Positions 2,845-62,038 of a stretch of 64,000 nt of DNA are shown here, one piece after another. The notes under the pieces are model-generated. The model saw only the letters and a program-made list of their open reading frames with translations. It made no database searches and had not been told where the DNA came from. The DNA lies in the NCBI GenBank assembly GCA_024654025.1, contig JANLIR010000007.1:421-64420 (forward strand). The letters run 5' to 3'. Source of the DNA: Candidatus Wolfebacteria bacterium. GTDB lineage: Bacteria > Patescibacteriota > Minisyncoccia > UBA6257 > UBA9933. How positions within the stretch are numbered: position 1 is the stretch's first letter; the number at the start of each line of letters is the position of its first letter. Position numbers and translations under genes: made by a program.

Positions 2845-3369
2845 ATGGAAATAAAACAGCGATTAGGCAGAAAAACTTTTTGGATTTTTGTTTTATCGAA
2901 TTCCAAAGCGGCTTTCGCTTTTCTTTTAGTCACAATAGTTTTAATTGTCAGCCGGGGGTATGTCGGAAACAACTTCACGGATATTTTGAATTACAGCATT
3001 ATTGTGGCTGGAGTTATTTTTACCAACGCTCTTTTATTGAGCATTGTTGTTTCGTGGTTGGTATATATTAACTACACGTTTTCCATAACGGAAAACGCTT
3101 TTAAAGTGAGGGAGGGGATTTTTAATAAAAAAGAAACCGCCATTCCTTACAGGCAAATACAGAGCGTTGATCTTCGCCAGGATGTTGTTGCCCAAATTAT
3201 CGGCGTAAGTAAGCTTGTGGTGCTTACGGCCGGGCACGACGATAACGATAAAACAGGCGAGGCAGAAATTGATTTTCCGGTGATAGACACGGAGTTTGCT
3301 CAAAATATACAAACAGAATTGTTAAAGCGCTCCCAAACGGAAAAAATCGTTATTCAAAAAGCAGAATGA
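2845..3369 (+). CDS. membrane protein with bacterial PH (bPH_2 / YdbS-like) domain
   Basis: two N-terminal TM helices followed by a soluble domain of YdbS/DUF304 type. Confidence 0.45.
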   Translation: MEIKQRLGRKTFWIFVLSNSKAAFAFLLVTIVLIVSRGYVGNNFTDILNYSIIVAGVIFTNALLLSIVVSWLVYINYTFSITENAFKVREGIFNKKETAIPYRQIQSVDLRQDVVAQIIGVSKLVVLTAGHDDNDKTGEAEIDFPVIDTEFAQNIQTELLKRSQTEKIVIQKAE

Positions 3370-4218: not shown

Positions 4219-4896
4219 ATGAAGGCTTTTACTGTTGAGGAGGACGGGCGTTTGTGGAGGCTTTCGCGATTTGGGCTTCGAACAATGGCTGGAAACCACG
4301 TTTACGAAGGTATTGATGTGTGGAAAGAAACTGAGGATGCTGGCTATAGAAAGATAAAAGAAGTAGGTCCGTATCTTTTTCGTCTGACAGTTTGCGGCAC
4401 GCCGAAAGTTTTGCCTGTTCTTGACGAGGAGATAGTGCGAATTGTCCACGAACAGGAAATTATGTCTTCGAAGGAATCGATTGTGGAAGATATTGATTTT
4501 CAATACGATGAAAATGGTTGCGCAAAGACAATAATTGCTCCTTCTCGCTGTAGTGACGATATCGTGGTTTACTGGAGGTTGGGAAGGATATACAACAGTC
4601 TTATCGAGAGCGAAAATTCTTCCATAGCCGTCGTGTTGAATAATGTCAGAATTATAGCTTTGGGATATGATTGGGACTTCTACGGTTCGTCGACTGGATA
4701 CTATCCAAGGATTCTCGTTCAACTTGAACCCGGAGGAGAAGTTATTGTGCCAATAACGTATAGATGGAGATTCGCAACACGTTTCCATACGCGGATTTTC
4801 TATGACGCCGAGACGAAGCGAATCGTATTGGACAGCGAGAAAAGTGTTCAAAGATCGGCGTTCGCGGAAAATATAGGGAAGGTCATTTCTCTCTGA
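4219..4896 (+). CDS. hypothetical protein (island ORF 2)
   Basis: ATG at 4219 preceded by GGAGAAAGGGGA SD; the upstream in-frame ATG at 4186 lacks an SD; no recognisable domain. Confidence 0.45.
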   Translation: MKAFTVEEDGRLWRLSRFGLRTMAGNHVYEGIDVWKETEDAGYRKIKEVGPYLFRLTVCGTPKVLPVLDEEIVRIVHEQEIMSSKESIVEDIDFQYDENGCAKTIIAPSRCSDDIVVYWRLGRIYNSLIESENSSIAVVLNNVRIIALGYDWDFYGSSTGYYPRILVQLEPGGEVIVPITYRWRFATRFHTRIFYDAETKRIVLDSEKSVQRSAFAENIGKVISL

Positions 4897-5049
4897 ATAA
4901 TTCCATGTGTAATTTGTAGGGGGCAGCCATTTGGTTTGCCCCTCATTTTTTTGACAATGCATAAGAATTTTGGCAGGATAAGGGCAGTATTTCGGCTTAA
5001 TTTAATAAGGCAGAATTGATTACAAATTTAAGAATAAAAGGGGAAAGCC

Positions 5050-5286
5050 ATGCCGTGTGAAAAATGCGAGATTATTTTTCGCAGTCGTAAGTCGGCTCCG
5101 TTCATTCCTTTTAACGGCAGGAAAAGAGATGATTTGTACGAATGTATTGGCTGTAAACAAATCTGGTGGCAGTATGATTTGGTTTGGCATTGCTGGACTA
5201 CGTTGAATGCGCGGCAGGTGGAAATCACGCAGAGAAAAATTAAAGCGCAAGAAAGAAAACCCATAAATCGAGTAAGAACATATTAG
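5050..5286 (+). CDS. small Cys-rich zinc-ribbon-like protein (island ORF 3)
   Basis: CxxC...CxxC pattern (CEKCE ... CIGCK); AAAGGGGA SD. Confidence 0.4.
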   Translation: MPCEKCEIIFRSRKSAPFIPFNGRKRDDLYECIGCKQIWWQYDLVWHCWTTLNARQVEITQRKIKAQERKPINRVRTY

Positions 5287-9364: not shown

Positions 9365-10645
9365 ATGAAAAAGAAATTATTAGCATCAATACTAGCAGGG
9401 CTTACAATTCTAAGTTTGGTCGCGTTTGCGCCATTTGCTTCGGCGGATAGGGGCGGTCGGGAGGACAAGAGAGGAGGTCGGGATCGAGATGATGACAATC
9501 TTAATCTTAATCGCGGCCAGATGATTTCTTCGTTTGTCCGCGGTCTCAACAGCGGTCCGGGCAGTATCAACAGCGGCCGGGATCGGGACGACGACGACGA
9601 TGATGATGATGAGGATCTTAACGATAGAGACGAAAACAGAGGTCGAGGGAATGTCGGGGCTGGTATTAGCGATGGCAGAATCCAGGCATTAGAGAGATTA
9701 ATAGTTCTTATCCAGGAACAAATTCAGATTTTATTGGCGAGATTGAATGAGCTTAGGGGGGACGTTAATACTGTTTTGACAATTTCTTCCGTTGCGGCAA
9801 CCGAGATCAAAATAACTGAAGCAAAGGTTGTCTGGTTAACAAGCAGATCGGCAGACAGCAAAGTTTACTTTAGCACGGCTTCGCCCGTTGATCTTGCTAC
9901 CGCGCGAACAAAGTCTAAGGGAGGCCTTGAATTCAGCCACAGAGTCAGTTTGGATGGATTATCTCCAAATACCACTTATTTCTTTATTGTTGAATCAAAG
10001 GACACTTCCAACAATGTCGTTCGATCAGCGCAGTTTTCTTTCACTACCTTATCTGTCGGCGTTGATAATGCCGCTCCGATATTATCTTCTTTGATTGTAA
10101 CTAACATTGCTTCAAGCTCGGCAGAAGTTAAATGGGTTACCAACAAATCCGCCACAAGTAAGGCCTACTTTTCAACTAGCTCCCCGGTTAATTTAGGAAC
10201 AGCTTTAACTGTTGTGGACGCCAGTTTGGTGACCAGCCATTCGTTGAGGCTGACAGGACTTAGCGCCAGTACGACTTACTTCTTTGTAGTTGAGTCATTT
10301 GACGCGGCGAGTAGTGTTACAAGGTCAGCGCAGCTTTCCTTTAACACGGTATCCGCGGCCGCGCCTGTTATTTCGGTGATTTCCGTTTCGGGCTTAAGTT
10401 CGTCAACGGCTACAATTTCCTGGACAACCGATACGCTATCTACGAGCAAAGTTTACTTCTCGACCAGCACTCCGGTTAATGTTTTGAGCGCTCAGACTGC
10501 ATCAAGCAGCGCTCTTGTTACAAGCCATTTAATAGTTTTAACAGGGCTTAGCGCCAATACCAATTATTACTTTGTAATTGAGTCTGTTGACGTAATAAGC
10601 AATGTGAGCCGGTCAAGTCAGTTTTCGTTTCTGACCACGCTTTAA
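9365..10645 (+). CDS. secreted protein: signal peptide, poly-acidic region, coiled segment, three tandem FN3-like domains
   Basis: signal peptide; 'DRDDDDDDDDEDLNDRDENRG'; three ~100-aa repeats each ending 'TTYFF(I/V)VES.D...V.RS(A/S)QFSF.T'. Confidence 0.6.
   Translation: MKKKLLASILAGLTILSLVAFAPFASADRGGREDKRGGRDRDDDNLNLNRGQMISSFVRGLNSGPGSINSGRDRDDDDDDDDEDLNDRDENRGRGNVGAGISDGRIQALERLIVLIQEQIQILLARLNELRGDVNTVLTISSVAATEIKITEAKVVWLTSRSADSKVYFSTASPVDLATARTKSKGGLEFSHRVSLDGLSPNTTYFFIVESKDTSNNVVRSAQFSFTTLSVGVDNAAPILSSLIVTNIASSSAEVKWVTNKSATSKAYFSTSSPVNLGTALTVVDASLVTSHSLRLTGLSASTTYFFVVESFDAASSVTRSAQLSFNTVSAAAPVISVISVSGLSSSTATISWTTDTLSTSKVYFSTSTPVNVLSAQTASSSALVTSHLIVLTGLSANTNYYFVIESVDVISNVSRSSQFSFLTTL
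9587..9616 (+). repeat. (GAY)10 trinucleotide microsatellite in coding sequence (poly-Asp)
   Basis: gacgacgacgacgatgatgatgatgaggat. Confidence 0.8.
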
Positions 10646-11388: not shown

Positions 11389-11684
11389 AGAAAATTTTAA
11401 CCCCCCTCCGACTTAATTCGGAGGGGGTTTTGTTTAGGTTTTTTGGGGCCGGTCGGAGCTTCGGTTTTTAATTTCGCCACAGATTTCGTCCCAATTTTGA
11501 ATTCCTTGAGGATTTTAAGGAAATAGACGAGTTTTATGCAGGGTATTGCTTTATTTTCTTTTATGTGTTAACCTTATTTCATAGGGTAAGTGTTCTCGCG
11601 AATGGTTTTAAGGCGACAATGTTTTAATCGGTCTTAATTAAAACCAGACGGGGGTTGGTCGCCTTACAATACAAAAATCAAAAA

Positions 11685-12023: not shown

Positions 12024-12127
12024 AGTAGATAAGAAAAACACCCCTCCGACTAAGGTCGGAGGGGTGTTTTGTTTTGCTTATTTTTATGATATATTTAAGA
12101 AAATAAGGTTGTTTGATTTTTTATAAA

Positions 12128-13352: not shown

Positions 13353-13810
13353 TGAAGGATCCAAAAATATTATTGGGCGCTTTAATTATAATCGCAGCCG
13401 CGATTATATTTTTATTTGTTAAAGAAAAAAATACCGGATTGCAGCCGCAAGTTTGCGTTAAAAATATCTGTTTTAACGTGGAAATCGCAAAAACCTATTT
13501 TAAAAGAGGAAAGGGATTGATGTTTAGGAAAAACTTGATTGAAAAATCCGGAATGCTTTTTGTTTTTGAGCATCCGAACCTCTATCCTTTTTGGATGAAA
13601 AATACGCTTATTTCGCTAGATATGATTTGGATAAGTGAAGATAAGAAAGTTGTTTTTATCCATAAGAATGCCCAGCCTTGCGTTTCGGGGACAATTTGCG
13701 AAAATATTAATCCGCAAGCCCCGGCCAGTTATGTTCTTGAAATAAACGCCGGCGAAGCGGACAAAGAGGAAATTTCAATAGGCGACAGCGTTAGTTTTAT
13801 AAATATTTAA
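13352..13810 (+). CDS. DUF192-domain protein
   Basis: 'KGLMFRK...MLFVF...WMKNTLISLDMIWI' DUF192 (COG1430) pattern. Confidence 0.55.
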   Translation: MKDPKILLGALIIIAAAIIFLFVKEKNTGLQPQVCVKNICFNVEIAKTYFKRGKGLMFRKNLIEKSGMLFVFEHPNLYPFWMKNTLISLDMIWISEDKKVVFIHKNAQPCVSGTICENINPQAPASYVLEINAGEADKEEISIGDSVSFINI

Positions 13811-15044: not shown

Positions 15045-15077
15045 ATAATAATATATGTTAAAATAAATTTAATAAAT

Positions 15078-15209
15078 CCCGCACCTTTATTAGATTTAAA
15101 TTTTTAACGAAGCCAACGACAATTTAATTAATTTTGATATTTTTATAAAATAATGATTAGTTATAAATTAACAAAATTTTATTGCTTCGCGATCTAATAA
15201 AGGTGCGGG
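15078..15209. mobile_element. MITE-like palindromic element, family 1, copy 1
   Basis: terminal inverted repeats (T)CCCGCACCTTTATTAGAT ... ATCTAATAAAGGTGCGGG(A); flanked by TAAA/TAAA 4-bp direct repeats. Confidence 0.65.
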
Positions 15210-15231
15210 ATAAAATTAATTATTAAATAGT

Positions 15232-16788
15232 ATGTCCAAAATTATAAACTTTATAAAAGCCAGGAAATTTTCGGTTGGAGGATTGCTGTTATTCGTCGTT
15301 GTGGCGAGCTATTTTTTATTTATAAGAACCAAACCAAGCGGTTTAAAATTTTTTACCGTTACAAGGGGCGAAGTTAAGTCCGAAGTAAGCGTTACGGGAA
15401 AAGTAAAGCCATCTAAAAACTTGGATTTAGCCTTTGAAAAAAGCGGCCGCATAACTAGAATTTATGTTAAGGTAGGCGACAAAGTCGGCGAAGGTCAGCA
15501 ATTAGTCAGCTTGGATAATTCCGATTTGATTGCTCAACTTGCGCAGGCCCAAGCCAATCTTAAATCGCAGGAAGTAAAATTAGAGCAACTGAAAAAAGGC
15601 ACTCGGCCGGAGCAAATAAAAATCCATCAAGCCCAATTAGATAAAGCGAAACAAGATTTGACTAATTATTATTCGGGGGCGGTGAACGTACTTACTGACT
15701 CATACACAAAATCGGATGACGCGATAAGAAAGCAAGTCGGCGGGCTGTTTACGGGATTAACCACGTCTAATCCGCAATTGATTTTTTCTTCAAGCGACTC
15801 GCAGGCGGTTATAGACGTCCAAACGAAAATGGCGCTGTCAATCGCCGCTCTTGATAGTTGGCGAAGTCAATTAAGCATTCTTAATTCTTCTGATTCGGCG
15901 GCAATAGAACAAGCCATTAATAATTCAGATAAGTATTTGAATATCGTCAAAGGCATGCTTGACCGATTGACAGATTCGTTAAATAGCTCGTTTGGGATTT
16001 CTTCCGCAACGATTGATTCATATAAACTTAACGTTAATACTGCCAGAGCCAATGTGAATACAGCGATAACCAATATTAGCAACCAATTGCAATCAATATT
16101 GTCGCAAAAAATCGTAGTCCAGACGAATCAAGATCAGCTTTCTTTGGATTTAGCCGGTTCGACTGCGGAAGATATTTCTTATCAACAAGCGCAGGTTGAT
16201 TCAGTGGCGGCCAATGTCGCTTATTATCAGTCGCAGGTTTCTAAAACTGTTTTAAGAGCGCCTTTTTCAGGTACGGTGACAAAAGTGAATTTTGACCCCG
16301 GAGACATTATCCCTGCGAATACCGCGGCTGTTTCGTTGATCGGTGTGGGGCAATACGAGATAGAGGCCAATGTTGCCGAATCGGACATTGCCGACGTGAA
16401 AATAGGAAATACGGCAAGAGTTACTTTGGACGCTTACGGTTCAGATGTGGTTTTCGGGGCAAAAGTCGTTCAAATAGATTTATCTTCAACTGTTTTAGAG
16501 GGAGTAGCGACTTATAAAACGACATTGCAGTTTTTGAATAGTGATTCAAGAATATTGGCAGGGTTCACGGCGAACGTCGATATTTTAAGCGCGCTGAAAG
16601 AAAACGTTCTTTACGTCCCGACGCGGGATATACTTACCAGAGACACTAAAAAATACGTTAAATTAGTAAAAGATGAAAAAAATGGAATTGTGGAGGAGTC
16701 GCAAATTACCATTGGGCTTCGCGGTTCTGACGGAAGAACTGAAGTTGTATCGGGCTTGAATGAAGGAGACAAAATTGTTGTTGACTAA
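15232..16788 (+). CDS. efflux transporter periplasmic adaptor subunit (HlyD/MacA family)
   Basis: N-terminal TM, long coiled-coil, beta-barrel/lipoyl-like segments typical of membrane-fusion proteins. Confidence 0.75.
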   Translation: MSKIINFIKARKFSVGGLLLFVVVASYFLFIRTKPSGLKFFTVTRGEVKSEVSVTGKVKPSKNLDLAFEKSGRITRIYVKVGDKVGEGQQLVSLDNSDLIAQLAQAQANLKSQEVKLEQLKKGTRPEQIKIHQAQLDKAKQDLTNYYSGAVNVLTDSYTKSDDAIRKQVGGLFTGLTTSNPQLIFSSSDSQAVIDVQTKMALSIAALDSWRSQLSILNSSDSAAIEQAINNSDKYLNIVKGMLDRLTDSLNSSFGISSATIDSYKLNVNTARANVNTAITNISNQLQSILSQKIVVQTNQDQLSLDLAGSTAEDISYQQAQVDSVAANVAYYQSQVSKTVLRAPFSGTVTKVNFDPGDIIPANTAAVSLIGVGQYEIEANVAESDIADVKIGNTARVTLDAYGSDVVFGAKVVQIDLSSTVLEGVATYKTTLQFLNSDSRILAGFTANVDILSALKENVLYVPTRDILTRDTKKYVKLVKDEKNGIVEESQITIGLRGSDGRTEVVSGLNEGDKIVVD

Positions 16789-17516: not shown

Positions 17517-18758
17517 ATGAAATTCAGGGATAATTTAAAAATGTCTTATTCGGGATTGACAACGCACATGTCGCGTTCGGTTTTGACCATATTGGGAATT
17601 GTTATCGGCATTACCGCGATAATTATAGTTATGTCTCTTGGGCAAAGCGCGCAGAATTTGATTGTGGGGGAAATACAATCAATGGGGCCGGAAACAATCG
17701 TTGTTTTGCCGGGCAAACAGCCTAAAGGGTTAAGCGATGTCGGCGGATCAATATTTGGCGATTCATTAAAAGAGAGAGATTTTAAGGATTTAAGCAAAAA
17801 AGAAAATGTTCCCGATGCCGTCAATGTTGGTCCGGTTGTTTTCAGCCAAATCAACTCTTCTTATGGATCGGAGACTTACGACACCATGATTTTGGGGGTA
17901 TCTCCTTCGATGTTTAAAACATTTGGCCTTGAAGTAAATCCGCCCGGAACGCTTTTTGGATCCAACGACGTTAATGAAAAATCCAGCGTTGTTATTTTAG
18001 GGAATAAAGCTCAAACCGAACTTTTTGGCAACTCTGATTCAATTGGAGAAAAAATTAAAATAAAAGGGAAAAATTTCAAAGTTATAGGCGTTCTGATAAA
18101 AAAGGGGCAGTCCTCGTTTGTTAATTTTGACGACCATATAATAGCGCCCTACACGACAGTTCAGGATTTGTCGGGCTTGAAATATTTCAACAGAATAGCG
18201 GTGACGGCTAAATCCGTGGAGGCAATTCCAAGCGTCATTAAGGACATAGAGCTTGTTTTAAGGACTAACCATAAAATTGACGATCCAAAAAATGACGATT
18301 TTTATATTCAAACACAGGAAGATCTGGTTAAAAGCATCAGCAGCATAACGGATATTTTGACGATTTTTCTGGGTTCCGTGGCCGCTATATCTCTGGTAGT
18401 GGGCGGAATTGGCATTATGAATATTATGTTTGTATCGGTTACCGAACGCACTCGCGAGATTGGGTTAAGAAAGGCGCTGGGCGCTACCAATAAAAATATT
18501 TTGGTCCAGTTTTTGACCGAAGCGGTTATTTTGACCGTAACCGGCGGGGTGATAGGCATTATTTTCGGGACCGGACTAACCGCTTTGACCGTGGTTGTTT
18601 TAAACAAGTTCGCGGGCATTAATTTTTCTTTTTCTTTTCCTATAGACGGAGCGCTTTTAGGACTGTTCGTTTCCAGCGCGGTTGGTTTTATTTTCGGAAT
18701 TTTCCCGGCGCGCAAGGCTTCACTAAAGAGTCCCATTGAGGCGTTAAGATACGAATAA
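17517..18758 (+). CDS. ABC transporter permease (FtsX/MacB family)
   Basis: N-terminal TM, large periplasmic domain, C-terminal FtsX-like 3-TM bundle. Confidence 0.85.
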   Translation: MKFRDNLKMSYSGLTTHMSRSVLTILGIVIGITAIIIVMSLGQSAQNLIVGEIQSMGPETIVVLPGKQPKGLSDVGGSIFGDSLKERDFKDLSKKENVPDAVNVGPVVFSQINSSYGSETYDTMILGVSPSMFKTFGLEVNPPGTLFGSNDVNEKSSVVILGNKAQTELFGNSDSIGEKIKIKGKNFKVIGVLIKKGQSSFVNFDDHIIAPYTTVQDLSGLKYFNRIAVTAKSVEAIPSVIKDIELVLRTNHKIDDPKNDDFYIQTQEDLVKSISSITDILTIFLGSVAAISLVVGGIGIMNIMFVSVTERTREIGLRKALGATNKNILVQFLTEAVILTVTGGVIGIIFGTGLTALTVVVLNKFAGINFSFSFPIDGALLGLFVSSAVGFIFGIFPARKASLKSPIEALRYE

Positions 18759-18759
18759 A

Positions 18760-18896
18760 CCCCGCACCTTTAGAAGATATTAACGCCCCGACGCTTTTAT
18801 TTAATATCGATATTTGTTTAAAAATATAGGCTTTTTATCATTGCCGCTTTTTACTAAAGGGCGTTTTTAAAAGCGTAATCTTCTAAAGGTGCGGGG
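18760..18896. mobile_element. MITE-like palindromic element, family 1, copy 2
   Basis: CCCCGCACCTTTAGAAGAT ... ATCTTCTAAAGGTGCGGGG; flanked by TAAA/TAAA. Confidence 0.65.
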
Positions 18897-18897
18897 T

Positions 18898-18920
18898 AAA
18901 AAAAGGCCCGGTTAAGGGCC
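18898..18920 (-). terminator. rho-independent terminator for the minus-strand gene 18967-19407
   Basis: minus strand reads GGCCCttaaccGGGCC + TTTTTTT. Confidence 0.6.
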
Positions 18921-41196: not shown

Positions 41197-41255
41197 AGGG
41201 CTTTGTCTAAATTTTGAAGCCGTCAGGCGAACAAAATTTAGATGCAAAACCTTTA

Positions 41256-41539
41256 CCCAGCACCTTTTTATGCATTATGTTTATATAATTCAAAGCAATA
41301 AAACGGGTGCTCTGTATTTTGGAAGAACCAATAATCTTGTTCAAAGATTAAAAGATCACAATAATGGAAGTAACTTTTCAACAAAAGAACAGAAACCGTG
41401 GCATTATGTTTATACCGAAGGCTATTTATCAGAAAAAGACGCAATACAACGAGAGTTAAAGTTGAAAAATTACGGCAACGCTAGAACATATGTCAGAAAA
41501 CGAATTCAAAACAGTTTAAAATAATAAAAAGGTGCTGGG
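41256..41539 (+). mobile_element. GIY-YIG gene cassette bounded by 17-bp perfect inverted repeats
   Basis: ACCCAGCACCTTTTTAT (41255-41271) and ATAAAAAGGTGCTGGGT (41524-41540) abut the start and stop codons of the GIY-YIG ORF; the IR core CCC(A/G)GCACCTTT resembles the family-1 MITE TIR. Confidence 0.5.
41270..41524 (+). CDS. GIY-YIG nuclease superfamily small protein (UPF0213/YhbQ-like)
   Basis: 'YVYIIQSNKTGALYFGRTNNLVQRLKDHN' GIY-(x10)-YIG with conserved R and E/N. Confidence 0.75.
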   Translation: MHYVYIIQSNKTGALYFGRTNNLVQRLKDHNNGSNFSTKEQKPWHYVYTEGYLSEKDAIQRELKLKNYGNARTYVRKRIQNSLK

Positions 41540-41599
41540 TGCTCAATTTTATAGTAAAATTGACTGCGCCTACGGCTTGTAAATTTTAATAAAATTGGC

Positions 41600-50502: not shown

Positions 50503-50619
50503 GTTGGAAATTTTTTGGTTGCCCCAATACTCTCGCTTTAGGCGAGAGAGTCGAGACATAAGGCTCCTCGACTAACACCTGTGTCCGCAAAGCGGACATC
50601 GATCAATTTTCGAATTTAA

Positions 50620-52150
<1,531 letters not shown>

Positions 52151-52382
52151 ATGCTAAAGCTCAAGCTTATATAGCGAAGAAAATCTAACAACCAGTACTG
52201 ATTATTAGAAATCCTTCGCCAGCTTGAAGTTCAGCATTTTTGTCCTTCGACAAACTCAGGACAATCCTGAGTAGCATCGAAGGATTGGGACAACCAAAAA
52301 AGTTCCAACTTTTTTTGGTTTTAATAAGCATCGATTGTTAAAGTCCTTTCCATGTTCAGCTCATTTTTTTCAGAGCCTACTT

Positions 52383-52409
52383 ATTTTACTTGACGGAAAG
52401 GGATTGTCA
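52383..52409 (-). promoter_or_regulatory. putative rRNA promoter
   Basis: minus strand GTTGACA-16-TAAAAT ~225 nt upstream of the 16S 5' end; the -35 is contiguous with the MITE copy 3 terminus. Confidence 0.45.
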
Positions 52410-52546
52410 ACCCCGCACCTTTAAAAGATATTAACGCCTCGCCGCTTTATTTAGTATCGATATTTATTTAAAATATGGGTTTTTACTAATGCCGATTTTT
52501 ACTAAAAGGCGTTTTTTAAAAAGCGCAATCTTTTAAAGGTGCGGGG
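52410..52546. mobile_element. MITE-like palindromic element, family 1, copy 3
   Basis: CCCCGCACCTTTAAAAGAT ... ATCTTTTAAAGGTGCGGGG, flanked by TCAA/TCAA; interior ~85% identical to copy 2. Confidence 0.65.
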
Positions 52547-52726
52547 TCAACCCTTTTCGATTAAATGTGGATAAGTCTATTTGAGTTCTTGCGGCCTATG
52601 CTATAATAAAAACAATATCGAAACCGCAGTATTTTGTTTCGATTTTAAATAATTTGAAAAGGTCGAGATGAAAATCTACAAGTCGATTAATTTTTTACAG
52701 AAATAAAAAAGGAATAAAAATAATTC

Positions 52727-57098: not shown

Positions 57099-58691
57099 AT
57101 GCCGCAAATTTATAAAAAATTAAAAGGATTCACTTTGGTTGAAATAATTATCGCTGTTTTTATACTGGCTTTTTTGACGATTCTTGTTGTGGTTCTTTTG
57201 GATCCAGCGGATTTTTTCCCGGGCGCAAGAGACACGCGTAGGATTTCAGATTTGCAGGCGATTGATTCGGCTTTAAGTATATATAAAACAGAGGTAGGCG
57301 CGTTTTTTAAATCGTCTTCTGTTGCGACTGATCCGTCAAACGCCGTTATTGGTTTAGTGCGTCAGGACTGTACGGGCTATTCAAATTGTTTTACTTCTTT
57401 ATTTGCTTGGCAGGCGGCGTTTGGCGGGATAAATTTTGGCGCTTGCGCTCAAGGCGATTTAGTTTGCGCTAATAAATCTGCGGTGGCGAAAATTGACGGA
57501 ACTTGGACAAATCCAGATACAAGCCGTTTAAATATTGACGGATGGACAACGAGTCCTTCTAACTATATAAGAATTTATACTGCGCAAGCGGCGCGGCATA
57601 ATGGAAAGTGGAACACTAATAAATACCGACTTGAGGTCAGCGGGCAAAATCCAATCGGAATTAACGAAGATTATGTGCGTATTGAAGGATTACAAATAAG
57701 AATGCCCTCTCCAGATTATCAAGCAATTACAAACGGGTATAGCGGCGCGGATATTAGAATAAATAATAATATAATTCGCGGCGCGGGCGGTGTTTCTAAT
57801 TCAACCTTCGGGCTTTATCTTGATGGCAATATTAATACCGAAATAAAAATATGGAATAACATAATTTATGATTTGGGCAGCGGTACTTCTCTGTGCGTTT
57901 TTTCCTTTGCTAACCAAACCACCTACGCGTATAATAATACTTGTGTTGGAGCCGGGTTTGGTTTTTACCGAAATACGACTGGTTCCGGTAAGATGTCCGC
58001 TATAAATAATATTGCCCAAAACACAACCGACGGATTTAACGGAGTTGATTCTTCTTCTGATTATAATATTTCCGATCTTTCAAATGATGCTCAGGGGACA
58101 CATTCCAAGAATTCCACCACGGTGTTGTTTGTTTCTACTTCAACCCCCGATTATCACTTGTCTTTAAATGACTTAAACGCTAAGGGAGCCGGGATGAAAG
58201 GATGTTCTTCCTCGTCAATTATGACCTTTCAAGACGATATTGATGGGCAACCAAGAGGCGGCAGCTGGGACATTGGGGCTGACCAAGCTGTCCCTGATTA
58301 CAAAACGGTTTTTACCTCTCTTCCTGATAATAATTCTGCTTGTTGCGCCAGCTATTCTTTGCCTTCTCTTCCTTCGGATTGGACGTACGGCTGCGTTGTT
58401 TCTACGGGTCTTCAACAGGTAAATAGCGGAGGATGGATCCCCTTGGATTTTACTAACATTGCGGCAAACGCCATGTCTTTTCTGTCTATTGACCCGGGTA
58501 ATTCTACTTCAAGCGGGCAATATTACACTTTTGTTTCTGACGGAAAAAAATGGGAATTAACTTCCATATTAGAATCCGATAAAAATAAGGGCGTGGATAA
58601 GATAGGCGGTAAAGACGGCGGACAGTATGCTAATATATTAGAAATAGGGTCTAATTTAACCTTAACGCCCTCAAATGTTAAAAATAGATAA
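57099..58691 (+). CDS. large pilin-like protein with parallel beta-helix repeats
   Basis: 'KGFTLVEIIIAVFILAFL' prepilin motif; repeated N-x-I-x-G/N beta-helix rungs. Confidence 0.55.
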   Translation: MPQIYKKLKGFTLVEIIIAVFILAFLTILVVVLLDPADFFPGARDTRRISDLQAIDSALSIYKTEVGAFFKSSSVATDPSNAVIGLVRQDCTGYSNCFTSLFAWQAAFGGINFGACAQGDLVCANKSAVAKIDGTWTNPDTSRLNIDGWTTSPSNYIRIYTAQAARHNGKWNTNKYRLEVSGQNPIGINEDYVRIEGLQIRMPSPDYQAITNGYSGADIRINNNIIRGAGGVSNSTFGLYLDGNINTEIKIWNNIIYDLGSGTSLCVFSFANQTTYAYNNTCVGAGFGFYRNTTGSGKMSAINNIAQNTTDGFNGVDSSSDYNISDLSNDAQGTHSKNSTTVLFVSTSTPDYHLSLNDLNAKGAGMKGCSSSSIMTFQDDIDGQPRGGSWDIGADQAVPDYKTVFTSLPDNNSACCASYSLPSLPSDWTYGCVVSTGLQQVNSGGWIPLDFTNIAANAMSFLSIDPGNSTSSGQYYTFVSDGKKWELTSILESDKNKGVDKIGGKDGGQYANILEIGSNLTLTPSNVKNR

Positions 58692-60351
58692 TATAAATAA
58701 TATTGGGAAAAGAGAGATAAAAGTATTTTTTTCGTTTTTATTAACTATATTTTTTGGCTTTGGTTTGTTTTTTTTCTCTCGCGCAGACGCGGCTTACGCG
58801 CCACCCGCAGGAATACCTGCCCCGATTTTTGGAATTAACGAAGTAGCGCCAAGCACAGCCATAAAATGTTCTAGTTGGCCATCTGCTTTTTCTCCAGAGT
58901 GTTATTACATTGATAATACAAGTCCGGCCGCAACAGATATTGGGAATACGAATGGATATCCGAATAGGCCTAGGGCGACGATACCGACGACCTATGCCGC
59001 CGGTTCTTACGCAGAGGTTCGCGGAGGACCGTACAATAGTATTACGATTACATTCAACGGCACGTCGGCTAATCCGATATTTTTCCGCGGTCCTTCCGCG
59101 TTGGATCGGACGACAATTCATGGGGTTGGGCTTACGGGAAGTTATGCAATCGTGGAGTATATTAATTCCGATTTGAATGGCGGCAATGTAGGGTTTTTAT
59201 ATCCGGCGTCCTATATTTCTTTCCGAAATAATACCGTACAGGGAACAGGAGTTCTACTTACTGGAAATCAATCCGCCTTATCGTTAAGCGGCGGCACGGC
59301 CGGACACAATAATAATTTAGTAGTCTACAACAACACCATATGGAATCATGGCCAATGGAATTATAACACCACCGCCGATGTTCACGGGATAAAACCTCGG
59401 AACGATGTCGATGAGGCGTGGATTTTAGAAAATACAATTTACCATGTGCAGGGCGATTCGATTCAGACGGGCGAGGCGACTCTCGTCGGACAAAGTTACC
59501 CGACTAAGATATACATCGGAAAGAATATTATGTATGAGAATAAGGAAAATTGTATTGATATAAAAGGCGGAACGGACATTATCGTATCGGAAAATATCTG
59601 CCACGATATGTTAAACGCTTATGGGGACGACCAGATGGAAGGAATTGTTACTCATAATAGCGCGAACTGGACATGGTATATCAATAATACAATATGGAAC
59701 TCCGGGTTTGGAATTTATACCTCTGGTAGTGCAAATCAGTACGCGGTTGGAAACGTAATTTACAGCATCCAGGGGAGTTCCAATCCGTCTTCGTTCTATG
59801 ACTACGGTACGGGAATTATTTTTATCGGCGCCAACCCCGGGGCAATCGTCAATAATACGATAGACAACACTCAACATGGATATTCCGAGGCAGGAGGCGG
59901 CGTGGTGAATATGGCAAACAACATCATTTCAAATCGCAGCCTCGCGGCGGGCTACGACCAGATGATAGAGAACACGACCGGCAACACTTTAGACTACACG
60001 CTGACTAGCGGCAACACCAAGACTCGCTGGGGCGGGGGAACTTATGCCACGGCGGCGGCCTTTAATTCCGCTACCGGGCAGGGCGCGCATCATTGGGAGA
60101 CTAATCCGCTATTTATGAATACCGCAGGCAACGACTACCGGCTGACAGCGTCTTCTCCGGCAATAAACAACGGAGTTCTCGCGCAAGTATACGCTACGTT
60201 TCAGAACCGTTATGGTATTTCAATCGCGAGAGATATTAACGGAAATATTCGCCCGTCGGGAACAGCTTGGGACATCGGCGCGTATGAATATGTTTCAGGC
60301 GCTCCCGACACCACTCCTCCCGCCGCGCCAACAGGACTGTCAGTAAATTAA
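58675..60351 (+). CDS. secreted right-handed parallel beta-helix repeat protein
   Basis: signal/TM N-terminus; beta-helix rungs; C-terminus 'WDIGAYEYVSGAPDTTPPAAPTGLSVN'. Confidence 0.55.
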   Translation: MLKIDNINNIGKREIKVFFSFLLTIFFGFGLFFFSRADAAYAPPAGIPAPIFGINEVAPSTAIKCSSWPSAFSPECYYIDNTSPAATDIGNTNGYPNRPRATIPTTYAAGSYAEVRGGPYNSITITFNGTSANPIFFRGPSALDRTTIHGVGLTGSYAIVEYINSDLNGGNVGFLYPASYISFRNNTVQGTGVLLTGNQSALSLSGGTAGHNNNLVVYNNTIWNHGQWNYNTTADVHGIKPRNDVDEAWILENTIYHVQGDSIQTGEATLVGQSYPTKIYIGKNIMYENKENCIDIKGGTDIIVSENICHDMLNAYGDDQMEGIVTHNSANWTWYINNTIWNSGFGIYTSGSANQYAVGNVIYSIQGSSNPSSFYDYGTGIIFIGANPGAIVNNTIDNTQHGYSEAGGGVVNMANNIISNRSLAAGYDQMIENTTGNTLDYTLTSGNTKTRWGGGTYATAAAFNSATGQGAHHWETNPLFMNTAGNDYRLTASSPAINNGVLAQVYATFQNRYGISIARDINGNIRPSGTAWDIGAYEYVSGAPDTTPPAAPTGLSVN

Positions 60352-60367
60352 AAATGTAAAAATCAAA

Positions 60368-62008
60368 ATGAAAAACTATAATATAAAATCAAAAATTATT
60401 TTTCTCGCGATATTGTTTTTCGGAATTTTTGGTTTGGTGGAAATTTCCAGAGCCGCTTGGACTCCGCCGATAGGCATTCCTGTGCCGCCGTTTCCTTCAG
60501 ATTTAGATGTGGTGCGCCCCGCGCCTCCAATTCCCTGGACTTCGGAAGTGGCGGGAAATTATTACATTCAGCGCGACCAGGCGGGATGTTCCGATTCTCG
60601 CGCCTACGGGGCCCCCTCTGCGGCTAGGTGTTCTCTTCCGTCTTCTCCGCCTGCAGGATCTAAAGTATTTTTACACGGGGTATATTCAACATATCCAACT
60701 ATTTCGTGGACGGGAACGGCCAATAGTCCAATTTGGTTAATAGCGTATGATAATTCGAATAAACCAAATATGTCTAATGGCTACGCTGTAAATAGTATCT
60801 ATACTATTTTAGACGGGATTTCTTCTTCGATGACCGTTTCTGGCGGCATAGGCGTGGCTGGACGCTACACAATGTTGCGTAATTTTACGTTTACAAACTC
60901 CGCTGACGGATCGAACTATTCAGGCGTTGCAGTAGGCGGCGGTGGAAATAATATTGTGATATACAAAGCAACAGTTGGTCCTTTGGGGAATTGGCAATAT
61001 GCGGGCGCTGGCGATATCGATACTCATGGCGGAAACGTAAGCGGGAATGCTAATTATATTTGGTTTCTTGATTCTACTTGGTTTCACGCTCATGGCGATG
61101 GAATACAGATAGAAAATGGTTCTGGAAACGCTGCTGGAGCGCATCATATTTATATCGGCAGGAATCTTGCTTACGAAAACTATCAGTCAGGGTTTTGGAC
61201 TAAAAACGCCACTGACGTAATTATGTCTCAGAACGAAGTGTGGGGCATGCATGTAATCCCAACTAATGCTAGCGTTGGAGAAGCGATGGGGGGTCAATAC
61301 GACCCTAAGTACGTTTGGTTTATTGCTAACAAACTTCATGATTCGTCAATTGGTCTAAAAATGTCTGGCGGAAACAATGGTGGCGGTGGTCCGTGGTATG
61401 CCATTGGAAACGTGATTTATAATATTTATCACAGCACTGCTGCGTGTAATCCATGGGGAATGGGCGCGTTGTCTTATAGAAATGAAGGCGGGCTATATGC
61501 TTATTTCAATACAATAGATAACGTAGATTCTTTTATATCTGTGATTCCTGCCAATTCAGGCGAGTTTCGTGATAATATTTTTACAAACCAGTATACTCCT
61601 GCTGGATGTCCAGCGCTGAATGATGACGGGTACGGTACTTATACTATCGACTATAATCTTTGGGATAACGATAATATTATTACAAAATATAATGGGACAA
61701 TTCGTACAACGTTATCTTCATTTGCCTCCGCGACGGGGCAGGAGACGCATCGGGTAGTTGGGAGCCCGCTGCTAAACGTCGACCGCTCGATATCAAGCAA
61801 CTCTCCCGCGATTGACACTGCAAATCCTACGGAGGAAGCGGTATTTGCTACATTTCAGTCTCGGTACGGAGTTGATATTCGAAAAGATTTCGCAGGGTCA
61901 ACTCGTCCCAGCGGCGCGCGGTGGGACATTGGCGCGTATGAATACGTTTCCGGAGCTCCGGTTGATACTACTCCTCCCGCCGCGCCAAGCGGACTAGTGG
62001 TTAATTAA
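60368..62008 (+). CDS. secreted parallel beta-helix repeat protein (paralog of 58675-60351)
   Basis: same architecture; C-terminus 'WDIGAYEYVSGAPVDTTPPAAPSGLVVN'. Confidence 0.55.
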   Translation: MKNYNIKSKIIFLAILFFGIFGLVEISRAAWTPPIGIPVPPFPSDLDVVRPAPPIPWTSEVAGNYYIQRDQAGCSDSRAYGAPSAARCSLPSSPPAGSKVFLHGVYSTYPTISWTGTANSPIWLIAYDNSNKPNMSNGYAVNSIYTILDGISSSMTVSGGIGVAGRYTMLRNFTFTNSADGSNYSGVAVGGGGNNIVIYKATVGPLGNWQYAGAGDIDTHGGNVSGNANYIWFLDSTWFHAHGDGIQIENGSGNAAGAHHIYIGRNLAYENYQSGFWTKNATDVIMSQNEVWGMHVIPTNASVGEAMGGQYDPKYVWFIANKLHDSSIGLKMSGGNNGGGGPWYAIGNVIYNIYHSTAACNPWGMGALSYRNEGGLYAYFNTIDNVDSFISVIPANSGEFRDNIFTNQYTPAGCPALNDDGYGTYTIDYNLWDNDNIITKYNGTIRTTLSSFASATGQETHRVVGSPLLNVDRSISSNSPAIDTANPTEEAVFATFQSRYGVDIRKDFAGSTRPSGARWDIGAYEYVSGAPVDTTPPAAPSGLVVN

Positions 62009-62038
62009 ATTTATTAATATCCGTGTTATAATTTATTT

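Follow-up and report, generated by a model that had tools for sequence, protein, structure and literature searches.

The 64,000-nucleotide stretch of contig JANLIR010000007.1 from a Candidatus Wolfebacteria bacterium (the window) carries an efflux operon composed of genes for an HlyD-type adaptor, an ABC ATPase and a MacB/FtsX permease, as well as a 16S rRNA gene and the pheS and pheT genes. Three short palindromic elements of the miniature inverted-repeat transposable element (MITE) type, copies 1 to 3, were found beside these genes: copies 1 and 2 lie on either side of the efflux operon, and copy 3 adjoins a promoter-like site upstream of the 16S gene, the −35 box of which is left intact by the duplication flanking the element. 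The spacer between pheS and pheT is filled by a unit containing a small GIY-YIG nuclease gene, which is framed by inverted repeats. The positions of all these features are listed in Table 1.

The terminal inverted repeats (TIRs) of the three copies are perfect 19-mers, and a 4-bp direct repeat is present on both sides of each copy. The initial annotation of this DNA had already reported palindromic elements with TIRs and direct repeats (TAAA, TAAA and TCAA) at these loci, had noticed that copies 1 and 2 flank the MacA/MacB-type operon and had described copy 3 as contiguous with the −35 of a putative 16S promoter. All of this was found again; only the outer base of the bounds given at the time was off by one, the true ends including a covarying pyrimidine/purine terminal pair. 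A search for the TIR pattern in the window yielded six sites with no mismatch, against 0.57 expected with up to three mismatches, and this count was reached in 0 of 100 shuffles.

Folding z-scores of the elements ranged from −5.7 to −8.5 on either strand, and no open reading frame (ORF) of 40–50 amino acids (aa) or more was found inside them. Identity between copies 2 and 3 is 87% over the full length and 84% in the interior. Copy 1 has only its ends in common with them, its interior identity of 55% being at background level, so that the earlier description of two similar interiors and a different one was accurate. No Rfam family was found over the elements at the gathering threshold, and when one locus with an element was scanned against Rfam by E-value, the element attracted nothing but chance matches of microRNA type. 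Within copies 2 (18845–18863) and 3 (52509–52526) a terminator-like hairpin followed by a T run is present on the plus strand; copy 2 could supply an extra terminator behind the efflux operon.

Table 1. Positions of the elements, their target duplications and associated features. Positions refer to the window unless a related locus (L and a number) is named.
Feature	Position	Strand	Size	Description
MITE copy 1	15077..15210		134 bp	TIR TCCCGCACCTTTATTAGAT; interior 19% GC, subfamily distinct from copies 2/3; DUF4015 gene on one side, HlyD-type adaptor gene on the other
Copy 1 duplications (TAAA)	left 15073..15076; right 15211–15214
MITE copy 2	18760..18896		137 bp	TIR CCCCGCACCTTTAGAAGAT; MacB/FtsX permease stop codon on one side, bidirectional terminator hairpin (18905–18920) on the other
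Copy 2 duplications (TAAA)	left 18756..18759; right 18897–18900			left copy includes the permease stop TAA
MITE copy 3	52411..52546		136 bp	TIR CCCCGCACCTTTAAAAGAT; subfamily common to copy 2 and L013
Copy 3 duplications (TCAA; TTGA on minus strand)	left 52407..52410; right 52547–52550			left copy is the first 4 bases of the −35 box
Promoter-like TTGACA-16-TAAAAT	52383..52410	minus		11/12 matches; upstream of the 16S rRNA gene
16S rRNA gene	50613–52150	minus
GIY-YIG composite unit	41197..41599	plus	403 nt	fills the pheS–pheT spacer, from pheS stop codon to pheT ATG; hairpin module, inverted repeat, ORF, inverted repeat, hairpin module
GIY-YIG ORF	41270..41524	plus	84 aa	UPF0213/YhbQ–SLX1 branch; candidate mobilizing enzyme
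Left inverted repeat	41255..41271		17 bp	ACCCAGCACCTTTTTAT; overlaps AT of the start codon; 11/12 match to MITE end CCCCGCACCTTT
Right inverted repeat	41524..41540			ATAAAAAGGTGCTGGGT; overlaps the last base of the stop codon
Start-codon sister MITEs, L047	~9470–9600; 9830–10000
Start-codon sister MITEs, L003	2418–2522; 5936–6040
Start-codon sister MITEs, L045	3318–3423; 7547–7651
Start-codon sister MITE, L043	15495–15606

Relatives of the window have empty sites

Relatives of the window were found through the HlyD-type protein (15232–16788) and their contigs were compared with the window. In L043/L044 (HlyD 86% identical) and L045/L046 (84%) the whole gene order is kept, with short spacers at the sites of both copy 1 and copy 2. 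In these four loci site 1 reads …AAATTTAATAAA|TTAATTAAT…, which is the window sequence minus copy 1 and minus one TAAA, and site 2 reads …GATACGAATAAA|AAAGGCCCGG…, the window sequence minus copy 2 and minus one TAAA. At the exact insertion points the empty sites hold TAAA only once, which identifies the 4-mers as true target-site duplications.

The existence of empty sites in relatives with flanking proteins 84–86% identical bears out the initial preference for a mobile family over a hairpin fixed at orthologous positions. We conclude, with high confidence, that the three elements are insertions of a small mobile DNA (MITE) family. The following generic properties of MITEs are present: small size, no coding capacity, TIRs, a fixed 4-bp duplication, insertion polymorphism and several copies. 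The possibility that copies 1 and 2 form a composite transposon around the efflux operon was considered and rejected, since the operon occupies the same position in the element-free relatives.

An element 88% identical to copy 1 is present in L045 at another place, the 3' end of a DUF192 gene, and this site is empty in the window, in L043 and in L047. The element (L045 8592–8725) lies inside the 3' end of the gene: its terminal repeat adds four new codons, and a new in-frame TAA is created by a T-to-A change that breaks one stem pair (…SVSFNPAP versus …SVSFINI at the C terminus).

More distant relatives, L047/L048 (78%), have a different hairpin element at the very TAAA used by copy 2. This sister-family element of 92 bp (L047 13524–13615, equivalent to L048 10054–10145) has ends CCCCCACACCAAACGCGGAT and a TAAA duplication as well. 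The shared TAAA is explained either by an insertion hot spot beside the terminator hairpin or by turnover at the site of an old insertion. In L045 the empty site of copy 2 (13560–13585) contains a 10-bp tandem duplication (TACGAGTAAA TACGAATAAA) that takes in the stop codon together with the target TAAA and that may have been left by excision or by a slip of unrelated origin.

A family with conserved ends and covarying stems

The exact paired-end pattern was searched in one genome each of 185,579 species and was found at 10 loci in 7 genomes. Five of these genomes belong to named lineages of the Candidate Phyla Radiation (CPR), namely Parcubacteria, Woesebacteria, Buchananbacteria and Saccharibacteria, and the remaining two are titled only 'bacterium'. 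The same pattern occurred at 32 metagenome loci and had no match in IMG/VR viral contigs. After repeats of one locus and one unrelated family were dropped, approximately 30 independent elements of 121–145 bp remained. As far as searched, the family is confined to CPR/Patescibacteria. It is present in several copies per genome: three in the 64-kb window, four with the exact pattern plus variants in the metagenome-assembled genome (MAG) JAJYNK01, and two in MAG JAGMAD01.

The interiors are split into many mutually unalignable subfamilies. A cut-off of 60% identity was useless on an AT-rich background of ~55%, and only pairs of at least 79% were kept as related. By this measure copies 2 and 3 group with L013, copy 1 with L045, and L001 with L008.

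The family-wide end consists of 13 conserved bp, (C/T)CCCGCACCTTTA, followed by 6 positions that are variable yet paired, giving a stem of 19 bp. The compensatory change between TIRs recognized in the initial annotation is therefore real, and it extends beyond the two variable positions mentioned there, covering stem positions 14–19 and the terminal pair across the family. Stem pairs 14–16 each occur in 3–4 Watson–Crick types. Double-change cells numbered 66, against 26 ± 4.5 in shuffles, the observed value being reached in 0 of 500. G·U pairs occupied 3 of ~174 variable cells, and pairing collapses abruptly at position 20. Since the six variable bp stay strictly complementary, the machinery, or selection, needs the 19-bp stem besides the sequence.

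Two further observations concern palindromes. The motif GCGAAGC/GCTTCGC, which is known to form a DNA mini-hairpin of unusual stability, is found repeatedly at the inner edge of the stems of copy 1, L003, L005a, L006 and L045 and in the hairpins of the GIY-YIG units L052 and L053. A separate palindromic family of 128 bp (L024, L029, L031, L034, L035 and L038) has only CCGCACCTTTA in common with the elements; its ends are CACCGCACCTTTATTGTGTGA, and its flanks (ttccacc/ggtggaa) lengthen the palindrome, with no direct repeat.

Target choice and insertion into functional signals

Perfect 4-bp duplications were found in 23 of 29 independent copies from other genomes, so that the direct repeats first noticed in the window are reproduced elsewhere; three more copies had duplications with one mismatch. 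When the 23 targets were oriented, the consensus was R|TVAA: T in 23/23, then C (12), A (8) or G (3), then A and A, each in 23/23, with a purine at −1 in 21/23. The duplications were accordingly of three types, 12 TCAA, 8 TAAA and 3 TGAA, and TTAA was never seen. A 'restriction-ligation' model, in which the element keeps its own 4-nt overhang, was rejected: copy 2 has TAAA, and copy 3 and L013, members of the same subfamily, have TCAA.

The majority of the TCAA cases are TGTCAA, i.e., the −35 hexamer TTGACA on the opposite strand. Insertions into −35 boxes were found at the 16S promoter of the window, at the promoter of an RNase P RNA gene (L005) and at tRNA promoters (L027/L028). TAAA duplications often include a stop codon, as at copy 2. 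Because the 4-bp target is duplicated, signals that contain TVAA (stop codons, the TTGA of −35 boxes, start codons) are preserved, which accounts for the location of surviving copies at gene ends and at the promoters of 16S, RNase P RNA and tRNA genes.

The same target rule is followed by sister families, which have different ends (TCCCGTTAGAAATGGCA, TCCCAYACATARCT, CCCCCACACCAWA). Sister elements with T/A ends are often inserted at A|TGAA, where the start codon is rebuilt from the last A of the element and the duplicate. Such T…A-ended MITEs (TCCCAYACATARCT, TCCCGTTAGAAATGGCA), with TGAA/TTCA duplications, sit at start codons in L047, L003, L045 and L043.

Locus L005 carries two elements (2616–2751 and 3034–3170). 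One MITE is inserted in the −35 TTGA of the promoter TTGACC-17-TATAAT, and a second, variant MITE (L005b) lies inside the RNase P RNA gene driven by it. The RNase P RNA gene was recognized (RF00010, E = 8e-22) with the MITE as a large insertion. The ends of L005b, CCCCGCACCTTTG…CAAAGGTGCGGGG, show a compensated change in the part of the end that is otherwise conserved.

A GIY-YIG nuclease gene framed by cognate repeats

The initial statement that no transposase is present in the window holds for classical transposases, but a GIY-YIG nuclease gene framed by cognate repeats (41255–41540) had been overlooked. Within the window, the motif CCCNGCACCTTT is confined to the MITE ends and the two repeats of the GIY-YIG gene (6 sites, against 0.05 expected). 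In the relative L057/L058 (PilM 86% identical), the place of the GIY-YIG unit is taken by an unrelated pheS–pheT spacer of 42 nt and, as far as comparison of sequences can tell, the unit between pheS and pheT is an insertion. Its outer hairpin modules are GGnTTTTG…CAAAACC and GCTCAATTTT…AAAATTGGC; their inner stems vary between homologous units of other genomes and remain paired.

The 84-aa product matched PF01541 (E = 8e-17), and the catalytic residues are conserved, Y5, Y16, R26, H30, E62 and N70 being invariant across 15 homologues. The closest solved relatives of the protein are UPF0213 BH0048 and SLX1, and the characterized members of the UPF0213/YhbQ–SLX1 branch are structure-specific nucleases. 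The family to which the protein belongs comprises 3,506 clusters at 50% identity (E ≤ 1e-10).

Homologues 49–77% identical to the protein were found in seven other contexts: the trxB–gap, T2SSE–T2SSF, DUF8128–TrwB and TrmB–nusA intervals, a site upstream of rpsL, the interval separating a 579-aa ORF from a racemase gene, and the interior of a 16S gene. With pheS–pheT, the unrelated contexts number at least eight. The six homologues outside the 16S gene are framed by ACCCAGCACCTT… repeats, in which differences between copies are compensated; the element within the 16S gene (L060) has the repeats ATGCCACACCTC. The GIY-YIG-type repeat pattern gave six matches in IMG/VR, all of them chance matches in GC-rich phage genes with no GIY-YIG ORF.

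A connection between the two kinds of unit was seen in L017, in which a MITE and a GIY-YIG element are arranged in tandem as TCAA-[MITE]-TCAA-[GIY-YIG element, CCCCGCACCTTTTTAGGACT end]-TCAA, with a sub-terminal GGACT common to both. The L015 MITE and the L017 GIY-YIG element agree at 22 of 25 positions of their ends. Locus L006 contains two GIY-YIG composites that lack the ORF and have their repeats just 24 nt apart. These composites (4482–4560 and 5075–5199) are in inverted orientation on either side of a 105-aa ORF (4631–4948); the second stops right at the nusA ATG, and the ORF-bearing unit of L054 also lies just upstream of nusA.

What moves the elements

Pfam scans of 30 window ORFs detected no DDE, HUH, serine or tyrosine transposase, and no Y1_Tnp, TnpB or integrase. 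Annotation of the loci of the syntenic relatives revealed no classical transposase. The related loci sampled, fetched by the MITE pattern or by the GIY-YIG protein, amount to ~576 kb. Units bounded by the ends fell into size classes of 52–88, 120–145 and 280–296 nt; no unit of insertion sequence (IS) size between these ends (CCCCGCACCTTTA) with a duplication was found, only pairs of separate MITEs (L003 2418–6040).

We propose the following scheme. The element inserts at R|TVAA, with duplication of the 4-bp target. The GIY-YIG gene, framed by the same kind of inverted repeat (CCCNGCACCTTT), itself behaves as an insertion and gives rise to ORF-less derivatives, and the nuclease produced by ORF-bearing relatives may move the MITEs in trans. 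The arms would be kept complementary as DNA, a hairpin forming on a single strand and one arm being corrected or copied from the other. Complementarity is placed at the DNA level because G·U pairs are nearly absent; selection on an RNA hairpin alone fits less well. Copies in transcribed regions probably owe some of their survival to an advantage at the RNA level, where the element forms a self-contained helix that RNase III may cut.

Taken as a whole, this explanation, a MITE family together with GIY-YIG mobilization, appears probable. Its second part is more tentative: judged from sequence, an SLX1/YhbQ-type GIY-YIG nuclease may be the partner, the MITEs being ORF-less relatives moved in trans, and on this point we are almost evenly divided. 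Slightly more tentatively still, the elements might represent a new class of mobile element, whose only protein is an 84-aa GIY-YIG nuclease that recognizes hairpin-forming ends, with their 13 conserved bp and structural stem, and inserts at R|TVAA with a 4-bp duplication. Nuclease-bearing (~290 bp), tRNA-carrying and empty (52–145 bp) forms would possibly all be members of this class.

Several points weigh against this explanation. The comparison of filled and empty sites covered copies 1 and 2, since synteny with the relatives ends before the 16S gene, beside which copy 3 lies. A MITE-type end (CCCCGCACCTTT) together with a 4-bp duplication (TCAA) was found in just one ORF-bearing element, that of L017, the other end of which is degenerate. 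GIY-YIG units of the window type have no duplication at their repeats and span exactly the interval from stop codon to ATG, which suggests a different way of moving. Neither strand transfer nor cutting with a 4-nt stagger is known for any GIY-YIG enzyme (cf. the I-TevI and Eco29kI types). No recognizable remnant of a GIY-YIG ORF was found in the MITE interiors. The ~576-kb sample is biased by the way in which it was fetched, and a DDE transposon with these ends may exist elsewhere. Finally, the same ends enclose tRNA genes, tRNA-Glu in L010 and tRNA-Ser in L007; an ORF between such ends need not be the mobilizing gene and could be cargo.

The tRNA-carrying elements are located at L010 1714–1848 (Glu-UUC, in a Saccharibacteria MAG) and L007 2150–2299 (Ser-CGA, in a Woesebacteria MAG; the same locus as L026 and L037). 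Both have no 4-bp duplication and lie between tRNA fragments. When the L010 element was deleted in silico, a tRNA-Lys(ttt) call was obtained; the junction then contains two tandem copies of the 11-nt sequence TGAAAAAAGCC. The flanks of the L007 element resemble the 5' half and the 3' end of a class II tRNA, and in-silico deletion gave no tRNA call; two GIY-YIG genes and a transfer-messenger RNA (tmRNA) gene are present within 3 kb.

According to the first alternative, which we regard as unlikely and still worth serious attention, the MITEs are moved by a conventional transposase encoded elsewhere, in the genome, a phage or a plasmid (a DDE enzyme, e.g., IS1380-, IS701- or IS5-like). The GIY-YIG ORF would then be an unrelated selfish gene that homes into hairpins or was captured as cargo within the same ends, like the tRNA genes. 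Fixed-length target duplications and true terminal inverted repeats, both found here, are the signature of DDE transposition, and the unrelated tRNA cargo within the same ends and the window-type GIY-YIG units devoid of duplications also fit such an enzyme. Against it, no conventional transposase was found in the 64-kb window or in the ~576 kb of related loci, and none of the size classes between 52 and 296 nt corresponds to an IS-sized unit. A transposase that reads sequence would also leave the perfect pairing of six non-conserved stem positions unexplained. The IS5-like origin suggested in the initial annotation is not supported: elements of the IS5 group share with the family a 4-bp duplication, inverted-repeat ends and an A/T-rich target, but this group has a YTAR target and ends that begin with GG/GA, whereas here the target is R|TVAA (never TTAA or CTAG), the ends start with CCCC/TCCC and no DDE_Tnp gene was found among the scanned window ORFs.

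A second alternative, which seems rather improbable to us as the source of the pairing, is that RNA-level selection maintains the 19-bp stem, as a self-contained helix that can be removed by RNase III or is harmless to the host RNA, like rRNA intervening sequences. RNase III substrates are perfect duplexes of ~19–20 bp, which is the size of the stem. Copies are found inside structured RNAs, namely in the RNase P RNA gene of L005 and, as a GIY-YIG element, in the 16S gene of L060, and short ORF-less non-intron insertions and GIY-YIG ORFs have been reported in CPR rRNA genes (PMC11270868). G·U pairs, on the other hand, are much rarer than in RNA-selected helices, and for the many copies located in promoters or in the intervals of convergent genes no defined transcribed strand is expected. 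Such selection would in any case address the persistence of copies and not their movement, and is compatible with the scheme of GIY-YIG mobilization.

Movement as single-strand hairpin elements of the REP/RAYT or IS200/IS605 (PATE) kind, by an HUH Y1 transposase, is very improbable. The compensatory stem and its strict Watson–Crick pairing do resemble DNA-hairpin recognition. REP/RAYT and IS200/IS605 elements, however, make no target duplication, are inserted on the 3' side of an invariant 4–5-mer and carry, in place of true TIRs, hairpins that are sub-terminal and asymmetric, whereas 23 of 29 copies here have 4-bp duplications of variable sequence, and no gene for a Y1 transposase, TnpB or tyrosine recombinase was detected among the scanned window ORFs.

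The least probable alternative, in which the elements are immobile hairpins conserved at their loci for a regulatory or structural function (as terminators, attenuators, small RNA genes or protein-binding sites), could draw on the strong, covarying stems, the position of copy 2 at an operon end, the terminator-like hairpins inside copies 2 and 3 and the place of copy 3 beside the 16S promoter, but it is refuted as an origin by the close relatives that lack the elements and retain a single 4-bp target, and is further opposed by the occurrence of one subfamily at different loci, by the ~30 copies with unrelated flanks that obey one duplication rule and by the lack of an Rfam match; a secondary, co-opted role is possible.

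Comparison with known systems

The elements resemble the Correia/NEMIS elements of Neisseria, the RUP elements of Streptococcus pneumoniae and the ERIC/IRU elements of enterobacteria, which likewise are ~100–150 bp long, have TIRs, are non-coding and intergenic, form long hairpins once transcribed, lie near or within promoters and gene ends and show insertion polymorphism. They differ from them in the duplication, which is 4 bp at R|TVAA in the CPR family and either TA (IS630/Tc1-like) or not clear in the others; the 4-bp TVAA duplication specifically sets the family apart from the IS630/Tc1-type MITEs Correia and RUP. They also differ in that only 13 terminal bp are conserved across genomes, whereas the interiors of the known families are homologous. 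Perfect covariation of six sub-terminal positions is not a described property of MITEs. The candidate partner of the CPR family is a GIY-YIG nuclease, in contrast to the DDE transposases of known bacterial MITEs.

Conserved ends, a variable but complementary inner stem and an apparent recognition of structure together with sequence are also features of integron attC sites and of the hairpin ends of IS200/IS605. Unlike attC sites, the CPR copies are single and scattered, with no arrays, cassettes, integrase or GTTRRRY core, and they have duplications and TVAA flanks; the duplications also distinguish them from IS200/IS605.

Free-standing GIY-YIG homing genes share with the window ORF a complete catalytic domain and the property of being an insertion relative to close relatives. 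Homing genes, however, occupy the same site in cognate alleles, and the window-type ORFs were found in the many unrelated contexts described above. Conserved framing inverted repeats, ORF-less derivatives and the 4-bp duplication in L017 further separate the latter from homing genes, and the 84-aa GIY-YIG core has no accompanying DNA-binding domain.

GIY-YIG ORFs have been described in insertions of CPR rRNA genes that are neither group I nor group II introns, together with many short insertions lacking an ORF (PMC11270868, J Bacteriol 2024). The host group is the same, and L060 and L005b look like the same phenomenon. That report makes no mention of inverted repeats or palindromes, terminal repeats, duplications, intergenic copies or a link to MITEs, and its insertions are in rRNA, whereas the window copies are intergenic. 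A location in stable RNA, as for rRNA intervening sequences, is shared by L005b and L060 and not by the window copies. It is likely that the present family accounts for the short non-intron insertions and the GIY-YIG ORFs of CPR rRNA genes. A literature search returned no account of MITEs in CPR and none of a bacterial GIY-YIG gene with terminal repeats around it; a GIY-YIG partner for a MITE family is plausible and apparently undescribed.

Other features of the window

The 16S gene of the window has 29-nt inverted repeats on both sides (50503–50531 and 52281–52309; 90% complementary), which are probably the pre-16S processing stem. It is not followed by a 23S gene; genes for tRNA Ala-GGC, Arg-CCU and Ser-CGA lie just beyond it. 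Two similar G+C-rich hairpins followed by T runs (11399–11444 and 12037–12082; AACCCCCCTCCGAC…GTCGGAGGGGGTT; 74% identical) have the look of a repeated terminator. The neighbouring ORFs 58675–60351 and 60368–62008, both large and both without a Pfam match, are, on sequence similarity, likely tandem paralogues, because their 3' ends (60268–60364 and 61922–62021) share ~100 bp at 76–78% identity.

Significance

CPR bacteria have tiny genomes that are thought to be poor in mobile DNA, and insertions of unexplained origin are a known feature of their rRNA genes. The elements described here point to short hairpin-ended transposons that remodel promoters (those of rRNA, tRNA and RNase P RNA genes), the ends of operons and genes for structured RNAs in this group. 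With the 13-bp end as a simple probe, insertion polymorphism could be followed at strain level in CPR metagenomes, and elements with this end are a likely cause of contig breaks in assemblies. If the link to the GIY-YIG gene is true, a nuclease family would be added to the prokaryotic transposition set (DDE, DEDD, HUH, serine, tyrosine, Cas1), and a role would be provided for thousands of orphan GIY-YIG proteins of 85–90 aa and for part of the very large UPF0213/COG2827 family.

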